Assembly: GCA_021161745.1 (NCBI GenBank)
Contig: JAGHAA010000024.1
Location: forward strand, 1 to 38,490
Length of the DNA: 38,490 bases
From: Candidatus Aenigmatarchaeota archaeon
GTDB lineage: Archaea; Aenigmatarchaeota; Aenigmatarchaeia; CG10238-14; JAGHAA01
Direction: 5' to 3'
Shown: positions 3,705 to 7,544 of the stretch, piece by piece
Position numbering within the stretch: the first letter of the stretch is position 1
Layout: each line of letters begins with the position of its first letter
Notes under the pieces: generated by a model
Told to the model about the DNA's origin: nothing
What the model saw: only the letters and a program-made list of their open reading frames with translations
Database searches by the model: none
Position numbers and translations under genes: made by a program

Positions 3705-6700
3705 TTAAGATGAGCAAATCTTCTTTTCCGTTTCATAAACGAGTTTTCTTGTTTTAAGAACAACGTCTGGGTTGACTGAAATGCTGTCTATTCCTTCTTT
3801 TATGAGGAATTCTGTTATTTCTGGGTACGTGCTCGGTGCCTGTCCGCAGATGGAAACTGTTACGCCTGCATCGTGTGCTTTTTCTATCAACATCTTTATT
3901 GCCTTCAAAACGGCCGGATTTCTTTCGTCAAAGTAACCCATCTTTCCGAGCAAACCAGAATCTCTGTCTATTCCTAATACGAGCTGTGTTAAATCGTTAC
4001 TACCTATACTAAACCCGTCGCAAAGTTTTGCAAATTCCTCTGCCAAGAAAACTATGCTTGGCACTTCTGCCATCAACCATACTTTAAAGTTTTTCTCTCC
4101 ACGCCTGAGTCCTTCTTCTTCCATTATCTTCAGAACTTTTTCAACTTCCCAAGTGGTTCTTACAAAAGGAAGCATCACCCATACGTTATCCAGACCCATC
4201 TCATCTCTGACTTTCTTTATCGCCTTACATTCAAGTCTAAACGCCTTCTCGAACTCTGGAGAGATGTAACGGCTTACTCCTCTCCAACCTAGCATTGGGT
4301 TATCCTCTTCTGGCTCATACTTTTTTCCACCTTTGAGAAGTCTGTACTCGTTCGTTTTGAAGTCGCTAAACCTTACAACAACAAAACGTGGGTATATTGC
4401 TTTGGCGACCATTGCTATGCCTTCAGCTAGTTTATCAACATACTTTTGCTCTTGGCCTATTTCTAACAAATAATTCGGATGCTCTCCGATGTAAGTCGCT
4501 ATTATGAATTCTATTCTCATCAAACCTATGCCTTCGAAAGGCAAATCTTTGTAGTCCTCTATCTTCTCTGGCACACCTAAGTTCATAAGAACCTTTGTTT
4601 TAGTTTTGAGTTTCTTTATTGCTTCTATTTCTTCAGGGCTTAATTCTTCCTTCTTTTCTCTTTCAATGATGTCCTCTATTTTGCCGGGATAGACAACCCC
4701 GTTCGTAGCATCAACAGTAACGACTTGACCATCTTTTAAAACTTTCGTTGCGTTCTCAGTTCCTACGATGCATGGTATACCGAGTTCTCTACTAACTATT
4801 GCAGCGTGACATGTTATGCCACCTTCATCAGTTATGATAGCTGAAGCTATTTTCATGTAAGGAACCCAATCAGGATTGGTCATAGTAGTAACGAGTACGT
4901 CTCCCTTTTCTAGTTTTTCTGCTTCTTGTAAAGTTTTTGCGACGATAACTCTACCTACAGCAGCTCCCGGAGATGCTGTCAAACCTTTTACTAAAGGTTT
5001 TATCTTCAACTTTTCTTCCTCTCTCCTTTTTTCGTAGAACACGGTTACAGGACGTGTTTGTAGTAAGAAAACTTTTCCATACTCGCTTGCCCATTCGAAA
5101 TCCTGAGGGAAGCCATAATGTTCTTCTAACTTCTTTGCTAATCCCCAGAGTTGATGGAGCTCATCTTCCGTTAAACATTCGATTTTTTGTAATTCCTTCG
5201 GGACTGATATTTCAACGAGTCCGCCCTTTTCTAGATCTGTGTACCGCATCGTAAGCTTATCTCCTACATGCTTCTCTACTACTTTACCCGTTTCCTTATC
5301 CAGTACATAAGTATCTGGATTTACAGACCCACTGACAACGCTTTCTCCCTGCCCCCATGAACCTTCTATCAGAATCTTGGTTTTATCGCCCGTAGAAGGG
5401 TGTATGGTAAACCCAACACCGGCTTTGTATTTACCAGCCAAGTAATCTTCTTTGCTTAAGGCACCAAGCTGCTTTTGCACAGGTACTGCTATTAAAACTT
5501 TTTCATGGGAAAAACCTTTCTGGTGTCTGTAGAAGGTTGCTCTTGCAGTAAAAAGGCTAGCCCAACATTTTTTAACACCCTCGACCACTTGTTCTGCTCC
5601 TTTCACGTTTAGTAAAGTTAGCTGTTGACCAGCGAAGCTTGCTGAATTATGCGTTATGATGCCTCCAGTTCCCGCAGCGAAGTTTTCGACGCCTGGAACG
5701 AAGAAATCATAAACATAACCACTGTATTCTCTTTCCTTAATACCTTTTACCTCATCCCAGTAAATTTCCTCAGGAACTATTTCGCTTAAGGAAATTCCGT
5801 ACTTTTCACTTAGAACTTTTTGCAATTTTTTAATACCAAAAACATCGTTAACGATTCCCTTATTCCAAGGAATCATTCCTTCCAAAAACCTTCCAAGTTC
5901 ATCATAACCTACGTACTTCAGTTCCTCTTTAACTATTACCTCGTTGCTGTAGAATGTTTTATGACAGTTCCTACAATAAAATCTTTCTCTACCCTTATAG
6001 TGGCTAGATTTTTCAACCTTGTTTTTGCAGTATGGGCATAAGTAGACTTTTACCTTTCTTTTTTGAAGCCTCTCTTCCAAGATTTTCCTAACGTGAGACG
6101 TTGGAAAAGGTAGTGTGTATATGAAATCATGATGTCTCTCACGACTTCCAAATTCTTTTGCTATTCTTTTAGCCTTCTCGAATTTTCTTCTATTTTCAAA
6201 CCCTACAATCCTTAAAAACTTCTGAGTGTCTCTAGTAAGTATCTTTATAGTTAAACTCTTTCCCTTTCTCCTTATGTAAAAGTCTATTCCGAGCACTTCT
6301 AAAAGCTTAGTTAGACCAGAGATCAAGCGTTTAGATGTGTTGTAAAAGGATACGTTGGTACTTTCAACGGTACCGTCCCCATCAAAACAACCTTTGACAA
6401 ATTCTGCTATGAACTTCTTTTCTGCATTAAAGACTATGTCTGGAACTAGTTTAACGTACCTACCCTTACCTTTTTTGCCGCTATCCTTTACTGCGATATT
6501 TTCAAGCAATTCCACTAACTTTTTGGAGTATAGCCTTAACTCATCTTTTTTAGTAGTGCTAACCCTTATTCCAAGTTTTTTAGCAAACGTTTTAATCCTT
6601 TCGACAACGGATTGATCGAAAACTGATAGGATGATGGACCTTGAGTGCTTGTCTACCGTTCCGTCGGCGGCAAAGATACCAAAAAAGTAGAAGAAATCTT

Positions 6701-7496
6701 CATCCAAGTTTAAGTTATCCATGTTTACTGGAAGTAACTCTTTAAGCTTCTTACGATTAAGTGGTTTTAATTCTAACCTTCTGGTTACGGGAACTCTAAC
6801 TTTTTTACCTATTGCATCCTTTGTTTTTTGAAGAACTTTTGGCTTAAACGATTTTTCATCTAAAATTATTAACGAATGGTTCGGAGAAACAACAACTCTT
6901 CTTCCACTTTTAGTCATTATCTCATAAAGTTTATCGTTGCAAGGATGTCTATAAACTTCTTTAACTCTCTTCCAAACAACTCTTCCATTTTCCATCGAAG
7001 GGACTTCAAGTATACAGTCTTCACTATTAAACTTTTCCCAGAGTTCGTCCATCGTAAGATGTCTAACAACGCCGTTAATCCTAACTAATACAAATTCGTC
7101 TCCAGCTATGCTAGGTAAATCCTCAGCTGTGGCTGAACTACGGATTGCGACCCATTCCTCTTCTTTTCCAAATTCTTGTGAGAGTTGTTTGTAGGCTTTA
7201 ACTATTTCTTCCTTGATTTCTTGTGGCATCTCAGTTTCCTCTATGAGCTTTCTTATGCTTGCAGTTTTTTCCTCTAAGTCCTTTGGATTGCTGTAATCTA
7301 TAGTTTCAAGTATGCTAAATATCTTACTCCTTATACGAGTAACGTCCAAAAAGTGCTTGTAAGCTTGAGCAGTGACTATGAAAGCGTTTGGCACAGGTAA
7401 ACCAGCGTTATACATCTCACCCAAATTTGCTCCTTTACCTCCAACTTCTGGTATGTCATCTTTTATTATGTCTTTGAGAAATTTTACGAACTTCAA
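3705..7496 (-). CDS. ppsA: phosphoenolpyruvate synthase (pyruvate, water dikinase) interrupted by a 489-aa intein
   Basis: Motifs present are VGGKGANLGEM, SSATAEDLP / SASFAGQQ, the TTMTNPDW..GGITCHAAIVSRELGIP phosphohistidine domain, and the C-terminal PEP-utilising TIM barrel (GSNDLTQ). The extein totals about 786 aa counted from the ORF-track start. The ORF track starts at TTG 7532. TTG 7496 is preceded by TAAGGAGGGGGAGT and gives the usual N-terminus M-KFVKFLKDIIKDDIPEVGGKGANLGEM. Confidence 0.9.
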   Translation of the reverse strand: MKFVKFLKDIIKDDIPEVGGKGANLGEMYNAGLPVPNAFIVTAQAYKHFLDVTRIRSKIFSILETIDYSNPKDLEEKTASIRKLIEETEMPQEIKEEIVKAYKQLSQEFGKEEEWVAIRSSATAEDLPSIAGDEFVLVRINGVVRHLTMDELWEKFNSEDCILEVPSMENGRVVWKRVKEVYRHPCNDKLYEIMTKSGRRVVVSPNHSLIILDEKSFKPKVLQKTKDAIGKKVRVPVTRRLELKPLNRKKLKELLPVNMDNLNLDEDFFYFFGIFAADGTVDKHSRSIILSVFDQSVVERIKTFAKKLGIRVSTTKKDELRLYSKKLVELLENIAVKDSGKKGKGRYVKLVPDIVFNAEKKFIAEFVKGCFDGDGTVESTNVSFYNTSKRLISGLTKLLEVLGIDFYIRRKGKSLTIKILTRDTQKFLRIVGFENRRKFEKAKRIAKEFGSRERHHDFIYTLPFPTSHVRKILEERLQKRKVKVYLCPYCKNKVEKSSHYKGRERFYCRNCHKTFYSNEVIVKEELKYVGYDELGRFLEGMIPWNKGIVNDVFGIKKLQKVLSEKYGISLSEIVPEEIYWDEVKGIKEREYSGYVYDFFVPGVENFAAGTGGIITHNSASFAGQQLTLLNVKGAEQVVEGVKKCWASLFTARATFYRHQKGFSHEKVLIAVPVQKQLGALSKEDYLAGKYKAGVGFTIHPSTGDKTKILIEGSWGQGESVVSGSVNPDTYVLDKETGKVVEKHVGDKLTMRYTDLEKGGLVEISVPKELQKIECLTEDELHQLWGLAKKLEEHYGFPQDFEWASEYGKVFLLQTRPVTVFYEKRREEEKLKIKPLVKGLTASPGAAVGRVIVAKTLQEAEKLEKGDVLVTTMTNPDWVPYMKIASAIITDEGGITCHAAIVSRELGIPCIVGTENATKVLKDGQVVTVDATNGVVYPGKIEDIIEREKKEELSPEEIEAIKKLKTKTKVLMNLGVPEKIEDYKDLPFEGIGLMRIEFIIATYIGEHPNYLLEIGQEQKYVDKLAEGIAMVAKAIYPRFVVVRFSDFKTNEYRLLKGGKKYEPEEDNPMLGWRGVSRYISPEFEKAFRLECKAIKKVRDEMGLDNVWVMLPFVRTTWEVEKVLKIMEEEGLRRGEKNFKVWLMAEVPSIVFLAEEFAKLCDGFSIGSNDLTQLVLGIDRDSGLLGKMGYFDERNPAVLKAIKMLIEKAHDAGVTVSICGQAPSTYPEITEFLIKEGIDSISVNPDVVLKTRKLVYETEKKICSS
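5646..7112 (-). mobile_element. class-1 intein with LAGLIDADG homing-endonuclease domain and an extra CxxC...CxxC zinc ribbon
   Basis: The insert sits between AEDLP and SASFAGQQ of PpsA. Ser1 starts SIAGDEFVLV (block A). Block B is SPNH. The LAGLIDADG motifs are FFGIFAADGTV and FVKGCFDGDGTV. Blocks F/G are YVYDFFVPGVENFAAGTGGIITHN, followed by the +1 Ser. The zinc ribbon is CPYCKNKVEKSSHYKGRERFYCRNC. Confidence 0.85.
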
Positions 7497-7544
7497 ACTC
7501 CCCCTCCTTATATATTTCTTACCATCAATCAATAATTTCTATTA

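Follow-up and report, generated by a model that had tools for sequence, protein, structure and literature searches.

A PEP synthase intein from an aenigmatarchaeal genome belongs to a widespread intein family with a transposase-type zinc-ribbon accessory domain

The only intein site of phosphoenolpyruvate (PEP) synthase (PpsA, or PEPS) that a search of the open-access literature yielded is GG[TRM]T/CHAA, located at the catalytic histidine of the enzyme (PMC10710043). Inteins may also carry accessory domains, which lie between the endonuclease and the section of the HINT splicing domain that is C-terminal, are diverse, and are believed to contact DNA (Beyer et al. 2022, PMC8966425). Here we present an analysis of the ppsA gene in a 38,490-nucleotide stretch of DNA (the window: positions 1 to 38,490 of contig JAGHAA010000024.1, assembly GCA_021161745.1) from a Candidatus Aenigmatarchaeota archaeon, in which the gene is interrupted at a different site, AEDLP|S, by an intein of 489 amino acids (aa). 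We place at about 0.82 the probability that this element is, jointly, a class-1 LAGLIDADG intein and the carrier of a transposase-type zinc ribbon acting as a DNA-binding accessory domain. Overall, the intein itself is ordinary, and its accessory domain is novel to a modest degree.

The published PEPS intein shares its host enzyme with the intein examined here, and both can coexist in one protein. However, its site lies ~770 precursor residues (~280 after splicing) downstream of AEDLP|S, in the catalytic His loop, and its junctions are Cys1/Cys+1, in contrast to the Ser1/Ser+1 junctions found here. In the window this second site is empty:

4809..4814, minus strand: empty second intein site, T907|C908 in GGITCHAAIV (residue 904), contiguous and unoccupied

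The GGxT|CHAA site is filled in the relatives G002, G005, G010 and G038, where the host protein breaks at residues ~907-913. PpsA proteins with two inteins, 1570-1730 aa in length, are represented by P0008, P0010, P0022, P0024, P0029, P0034, P0035, P0038 and P0039.

The intein of the window, its splicing and endonuclease domains, and the two exteins of its host gene are laid out as follows.

5646..7112, minus strand: intein, 489 aa, from Ser1 to Asn489 (SIAGDEF...GGIITHN), residues 141-629 of the open reading frame (ORF)
6783..7112, minus strand: N-terminal HINT splicing region, with the block A Ser1 codon at 7110-7112 and block B S76-P-N-H79 at 6876-6887
5646..5771, minus strand: C-terminal HINT splicing region, with block F YVYDFFVPGVENFAAG and block G GGIITH488-N489
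6138..6725, minus strand: LAGLIDADG homing-endonuclease domain (Pfam LAGLIDADG_3, Hom_end)
6657-6701, minus strand: LAGLIDADG motif 1, DEDFFYFFGIFAADGTV, intein residues 138-152, acidic residue D150
6369-6416, minus strand: LAGLIDADG motif 2, FIAEFVKGCFDGDGTV, intein residues 233-248, acidic residue D246
3705..7532, minus strand: ppsA precursor ORF with the intein in place, encoding PEP synthase / pyruvate, water dikinase, open for 1275 aa
7113..7532, minus strand: N-extein, ending ...VAIRSSATAEDLP, with the N-terminal portion of PPDK_N, the ATP-binding domain
3705..5645, minus strand: C-extein, from the +1 Ser (SASFAGQQ...) through the stop codon

The insert is a bona fide class-1 intein that uses Ser1, a His-Asn pair and Ser+1, with no cysteine nucleophile. 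Its sequence is matched well above cut-off by the Pfam model Intein_splicing (PF14890; E=4.6e-20, 72.4 bits against a cut-off of 35.8) and by the NCBIfam model intein_Nterm (TIGR01445; 41.2 bits against 24.5, spanning intein residues 2-82), and above cut-off by intein_Cterm (TIGR01443; 18 bits against 15.6). Sequence matches in the Protein Data Bank (PDB) comprise PI-PkoII and the C-terminal blocks of the TFIIB, CDC21, RadA and PolII inteins. An AlphaFold2 model built from 32 sequences has a mean predicted local distance difference test score (pLDDT) of 89.1 and a predicted template modelling score (pTM) of 0.84. The best Foldseek matches to this model are PI-PfuI (4.4e-23), the TliVMA intein (4.8e-22), PI-PkoII, the PhoVMA intein, PI-SceI and I-DmoI. 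Residue conservation was examined across 32 homologues, among which the splicing residues S1, T67, H79, D469, H488 and N489 are invariant; the window has the complete set of class-1 residues, namely Ser1, the block B His79, the block F Asp469, the penultimate His488, the C-terminal Asn489 and a serine at +1. Splicing would proceed through an N-O acyl shift at Ser1, transesterification onto Ser+1, cyclisation of Asn489 and a final O-N shift, which would yield a PpsA of 786 aa.

The host protein is recognizable on both sides of the insert. The NCBIfam equivalogs for PEP synthase, NF005057 (1020 bits) and TIGR01418 (989 bits), both give a split match with one segment on either side, and Pfam PPDK_N is likewise divided, at profile position ~115/116. 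The insert is flanked by ...SSATAEDLP and SASFAGQQ..., with Pro140 on one side of the insertion point and, on the other, the residue directly ahead of ASFAGQQ. Its removal in silico restores a colinear host protein of 786 aa, which reads AEDLPSASFAGQQ, with the flanks joined across the insertion point as ...ACAGCTGAGGATTTACCT|TCAGCAAGCTTCGCTGGTCAA...; similarly, 16 intein-free orthologues read RSSATAED(L/V/I)PxASFAGQ and have exactly one residue at the junction position. The remaining portion of PPDK_N is in the C-extein, together with the mobile His and PEP-binding domains. The true start of ppsA is probably the TTG at 7496, giving MKFVKF...; the database protein P0001 (1263 aa) also begins MKFVKF at this codon and not at the TTG at 7532. 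Because the insert lies within the conserved RSSATAEDLPxASFAGQ motif of PPDK_N, the unspliced precursor is very probably inactive, and since it splits the ATP-binding domain, PpsA activity can reasonably be expected to depend on splicing. For this genome the consequence is one of routine annotation, in which ppsA is to be read as intact but requiring splicing.

The nested endonuclease is of the two-motif LAGLIDADG type, with D150 and D246 both present and a fold that matches PI-PfuI and I-DmoI in Foldseek. It is recognized by Pfam LAGLIDADG_3 (PF14528; E=3.3e-19, 69.3 bits against a cut-off of 22.5) and Hom_end (PF05204; E=1.4e-10, 41.7 bits against 21.1). Among the homologues G145, G151, K216, K221, P224, D244, D246 and G247 are invariant, and the acidic position of each LAGLIDADG motif is conserved together with K221 and P224 of block D. 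Such an endonuclease would cut an intein-free ppsA at the sequence encoding AEDLP|xASFAGQ, after which the element would be copied into the cleaved allele in a homing event.

A discrete domain, the accessory module, separates the endonuclease from the C-terminal HINT region and is composed as follows.

5793..6110, minus strand: accessory module, consisting of a helix, a zinc ribbon, a GRF..PWNKG linker and a helix, intein residues ~335-440
5937..6062, minus strand: four-Cys zinc ribbon of the IS1/IS1595/IS256 transposase N-terminal type, C359-P-Y-C362 ... C380-R-N-C383
6027-6038, minus strand: CPYC, intein residues 359-362
5964-5975, minus strand: CRNC, intein residues 380-383, 17 residues after CPYC
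5856..5903, minus strand: D-E-x-G-R-F-x-x-G-x-x-P-W-N-K-G stretch after the ribbon, predicted flexible

The four ribbon cysteines are invariant among the homologues, as are G407, F409, P415 and N417 of the GRFxxGxxPWNKG stretch. In models of the whole intein and of the module the ribbon is folded with confidence (pLDDT 85-97), unlike the GRF..PWNKG stretch (47-62), which is followed by a helix; the isolated-module model as a whole scores 78. The charge of the module is basic, with 21% lysine and arginine against 13% aspartate and glutamate. Its resemblance to transposase ribbons shows across the family: among 11 family members, and counting matches at E<=1e-3, NF048018 matches 8 (best E 4.7e-10) and NF050000 matches 7 (best E 7.7e-10), and models of the IS1 and IS1249 transposases are each matched by single members. 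P0036 and P0037 carry a precomputed match to PF03811 (InsA N-terminal). A phmmer search of the module against 1.84 billion representative proteins returned 19 matches, consisting of PpsA inteins, proteins built of tandem InsA-type ribbons and one protein in which such ribbons are joined to an Endonuclease VII domain; a word-indexed protein search limited to the module returned only the protein of the window itself. For the GRF..PWNKG stretch a NUMOD-like motif was considered and found to be unsupported by PHROGs and Pfam, neither of which matched anything there.

Homology of the ribbon to transposases, the basic charge, the strong conservation and the flexible but conserved tail together suggest that the module extends the DNA recognition of the LAGLIDADG core, which we regard as its most likely role. 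It would bind DNA beside the LAGLIDADG footprint, lengthening or strengthening target recognition. The free-standing proteins P0085 (254 aa), P0082, P0083 and P0088-P0090 carry one to five tandem InsA-type zinc ribbons, and in one of them two ribbons are fused to an Endonuclease VII domain. This fusion indicates that a further family of nucleases has taken up the same type of ribbon for targeting DNA.

These results bear out much of an earlier sequence-only reading of the window. The 489-aa insert that it had placed at 5646-7112, splitting SSATAEDLP-x-ASFAGQQ, was exact to the coordinate, its splicing blocks and two LAGLIDADG motifs were recovered as formal Pfam and NCBIfam matches above cut-off, its CPYC-x17-CRNC ribbon is indeed situated after the endonuclease and ahead of the C-terminal splicing region, and the excision that it had expected to restore the motif and an extein of normal size does so at 786 aa. 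It had also assigned the host gene to a glycolysis cluster. The neighbours of ppsA form a glycolysis/glycogen cluster and comprise two glycoside hydrolases of family 57 (GH57), a cupin-type phosphoglucose isomerase, a class I fructose-bisphosphate aldolase, PfkB, a ROK kinase, triosephosphate isomerase, phosphoglycerate kinase and glyceraldehyde-3-phosphate dehydrogenase (GAPDH).

The intein of the window is one of a large family at the AEDLP|S/T site. A protein search identified 44 database PEP synthases in which this very position is occupied by an intein, all of them with Ser1, ...THN and Ser or Thr at +1; CxxC-x17/18-CxxC occurs at the same place in 43, and a CxC variant in the remaining one. 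A scan of one genome per species, in which a single intein sequence gave nothing and an alignment was required as the query, contributed ~50 further loci with an intein at this site, again all with Ser1, THN and S/T+1. The family therefore amounts to ~90 inteins, all but two of which possess the four-Cys ribbon and the GRF..PWNKG stretch. Its hosts include DPANN archaea (Aenigmatarchaeota, Woesearchaeota, Nanoarchaeota, Iainarchaeota and Micrarchaeota), Euryarchaeota (metagenome-assembled genomes (MAGs) of a Methanococci member and of an ANME-1 member, and several haloarchaea), and bins labelled as candidate phyla radiation (CPR) bacteria. The last label is genuine in at least two cases, a bacterial context being confirmed for L058 by neighbouring sortase and RecX genes and for L022 by a type I GAPDH. 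The contig of L030 (JAFCBY010000024.1), labelled "Candidatus Falkowbacteria", is archaeal, since genes for an archaeal uL16 and the diphthamide synthase Dph2 lie beside its intein-bearing ppsA. The labels Saccharibacteria, Methanosarcinales and Gammaproteobacteria on 'binchicken' MAGs in the hit list are possibly unreliable too. In the intein tree DPANN, euryarchaeal and CPR hosts are intermixed.

The zinc ribbon is thus the standard accessory domain of a widespread, cross-domain intein family, and is not unique to this genome. A hidden Markov model (HMM) of the module, covering the ribbon and GRF..PWNKG, matches every PpsA intein at this site, including three in relatives of the same order. 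None of the ~14 further inteins that this genome contains was matched. The ~130 non-allelic loci for inteins or endonucleases, drawn from genomes and viral contigs, yielded a single borderline match (E~1e-3), which falls on an unrelated ORF of 111 aa in L112. Neither an allelic relative nor a copy of the module was found in the viral contigs, and these identified no viral vector for its spread. Furthermore, the module is separable from the rest of the intein. In two haloarchaeal inteins at this site, L059 (422 aa) and L062 (416 aa), exactly the block of ~100 aa that forms the module is absent and the remainder is kept. Both nest within a ribbon-bearing haloarchaeal clade with support of 100/100, indicating that the absence is a secondary deletion; L062 in addition has a Glu-to-Gln substitution in LAGLIDADG motif 1. 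Two other inteins at this site, L050 and L057, when read in the tblastn frame, contain numerous stop codons in the direction of the 3' end and appear to be frameshifted, the module HMM still finding the ribbon in them; they are either decaying copies or assembly errors.

Two further expectations of the sequence-only reading found no support in the form given. It had regarded Ser1 and the zinc ribbon as less common. We rejected Ser1 as a remarkable feature, as it is invariant both in this family and in the sister inteins of the RNA polymerase subunit RpoA'', and is apparently shared by two or more of the genome's other inteins; the ribbon, present in all but two of the ~90 inteins at this site, is so regular a component that its novelty is reduced, as that reading had itself anticipated for such an outcome. 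It had also pointed to the known PEP synthase intein of Methanocaldococcus jannaschii for comparison. That intein probably occupies GGxT/CHAA, the published PEPS site, which is empty in the window; the two would then not be the same allele.

Within the order of the host the intein is distributed patchily. Of 40 genomes, ~30 carry ppsA, and the intein was found only in G002, G017 and G029; such a restriction to three of ~30 ppsA-bearing relatives fits a mobile element. The eight closest exteins, at 70-75% identity, are all intein-free. Empty sites of ppsA genes from the same order (L091-L110) have G, E, D, S or T at +1 and sometimes VE, VK, IK or LS at -2/-1, so that in some of these intein-free alleles the -1 proline is replaced by E, K or S. 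Such flank variants may represent target sites that resist the endonuclease, and the variation among empty sites would fit a homing cycle in which an allele is invaded, the element is lost and the target site changes. The genome of the window (G000; 745 kb, 88% complete) contains ~14 inteins according to Pfam Intein_splicing, a very high density for so small a genome, and several host ORFs carry two. The intein-bearing contigs are C9, C10, C21, C41, C55, C57, C67, C68, C75, C80 and C76, the last being that of the window. Junctions of these inteins appear mixed, some with Cys1 and some with Ser1, followed by S, T or C at +1.

Several observations weigh against the joint interpretation given at the outset. 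The ribbon of the window itself falls just under the cut-offs of both transposase models (26.6 bits against 27 for NF048018, and 24.8 against 28 for NF050000), and Pfam, like PHROGs, gave only weak generic zinc-ribbon matches on the module. A Foldseek search with the isolated-module model yielded nothing below E=0.28 and only generic ribbons (Trm112, RPB9/C11 and YfgJ), with no solved structure corresponding to the module. Furthermore, L059 lacks the module and retains both LAGLIDADG acidic residues, which indicates that the module is not obviously indispensable for the endonuclease. Protein splicing, DNA cleavage, zinc binding and DNA binding are moreover all activities that we infer. Finally, a foreign signature was sought in the base composition of the intein and none was found relative to the host gene: its GC content is 0.36 against 0.38-0.41, with equal GC at third codon positions. 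As the closest homologue identified by protein search is only 55% identical, this host-like composition argues that arrival was not recent, and cleavage activity may since have been lost.

This last point leads to an alternative in which the element is a fixed, splicing-only intein, with an endonuclease and accessory domain that persist as relics and no homing in this lineage. A base composition indistinguishable from that of the host gene, the 55% identity to the nearest known homologue and its lack of any sign of recent transfer would all be expected of such an element, as would the many relatives whose empty sites are altered at -2/-1 or +1 in ways that could confer immunity to cleavage. 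However, the signature residues of the endonuclease are all intact in the window and conserved throughout the family, and the intein is patchy within the order and crosses the boundary between domains of life, which leads us to consider loss of homing rather unlikely.

A second alternative concerns the module alone, which might be a piece of a transposase that was captured and now serves only structure or stability, or no purpose, and makes no contact with DNA. Its resemblance to transposase N-terminal domains, the existence of a clean natural deletion and the lack of a significant structural neighbour for the isolated module are all compatible with this view. However, the four cysteines, R377, G407, F409, P415 and N417 vary little or not at all at ~35-55% overall identity and across two domains of life, and such constancy among divergent sequences argues for selection on function. 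In addition, deletions of the module are rare (2 of ~50 loci) and derived, and one of the two deleted inteins, L062, also carries the Glu-to-Gln change in LAGLIDADG motif 1 that would be expected of a decaying element. We therefore judge a module without DNA contact to be improbable.

Zinc inhibition and disulfide-controlled splicing are known in other inteins, and the ribbon could accordingly be imagined as a metal or redox switch, with PpsA maturing only in a certain zinc or redox state and gluconeogenic flux thereby coupled to the environment; the module lies immediately upstream of splicing block F, its four invariant cysteines occur in an intein whose two splice junctions are otherwise free of cysteine, and the host enzyme, encoded within the glycolysis cluster, is a switch point of central carbon metabolism, such that a switch, if real, would constitute a natural conditional-splicing regulator of glycolysis and gluconeogenesis in minimal-genome organisms, common to DPANN archaea and CPR bacteria. 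This is very improbable, however, given that ribbons of this type serve DNA binding in transposases, that a conserved basic flexible segment follows the ribbon, that the ribbon occupies a known accessory-domain position tied to DNA recognition, that two natural variants without it keep all splicing residues and an open frame, and that no spatial link connects its cysteines to the splice junctions.

We accordingly retain the interpretation of a class-1 LAGLIDADG intein whose zinc ribbon is a DNA-binding accessory domain, the interest of which lies at the level of the family: a widespread, cross-domain intein allele with a transposase-type zinc ribbon as its accessory domain. A family at this PEP synthase site with such a domain is apparently undescribed, as the open-access literature yielded no mention of the AEDLP site or of any intein with a zinc ribbon for its accessory domain. 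Inteins have been proposed to escape extinction by acquiring diverse accessory domains (Beyer et al. 2022, PMC8966425). The present family would exemplify such an acquisition from the toolkit of another mobile element, with natural deletion variants available for comparison. In addition, its compact scaffold of zinc ribbon and meganuclease is of possible interest for the engineering of rare-cutting nucleases.

In its overall architecture of HINT domain, two-motif LAGLIDADG endonuclease and accessory domain, the intein resembles PI-PfuI (1DQ3), the TliVMA and PhoVMA inteins (7QSS, 7QST) and PI-PkoII/PI-TkoII (2CW7). PI-PfuI, the VMA inteins and PI-PkoII are its best structural matches (E 4e-23 to 1e-18), and 2cw7 is the best sequence match in the PDB. 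However, these archaeal inteins with accessory domains occupy other host genes and insertion sites and share only ~17% sequence identity with the intein of the window. Domain IV of PI-TkoII has no metal site, in contrast to the transposase-type four-Cys ribbon and GRF..PWNKG stretch found here; the Stirrup accessory domain of PI-PfuI is not known to have one either. A more distant parallel is offered by homing endonucleases of the I-TevI type, which are GIY-YIG enzymes, free-standing or intron-encoded, and combine a catalytic domain, a linker with a zinc finger and a DNA-binding domain. The likeness is functional only, that of a homing endonuclease to which a small zinc module and a long, flexible stretch add contacts with DNA; neither Pfam nor Foldseek of the isolated module gave a sequence or structural match between these systems and the ppsA intein.

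The closest counterparts of the ribbon itself are the IS1 InsA, IS1595 and IS256-N domains (NF050000, NF048018, PF03811, PF12760), with which it shares CxxC-x17/18-CxxC spacing and a K.G....QRY.C..C.K.F-like signature. These domains sit at the N-terminus of transposases, whereas here the ribbon is embedded in an intein. Among inteins, the closest non-allelic relatives are those of the RNA polymerase A'' subunit of DPANN archaea (...EPxTQM|S...THN|T), which form the sister group in the intein tree; NF011491, an NCBIfam model that includes an RpoA'' intein, matches residues 35-343 of the ppsA intein at 2.7e-39. The RpoA'' inteins share Ser1 and THN and have Thr at +1. However, they reside in a different host protein, and in the position of the module they carry a shorter, helix-rich segment free of cysteine (e.g. 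...FTKRQKIGRT.L.K.I..F...), which is conserved among L064-L068 and L081. The presence of different segments at the same position in sister inteins suggests that related inteins have exchanged accessory modules for DNA binding.

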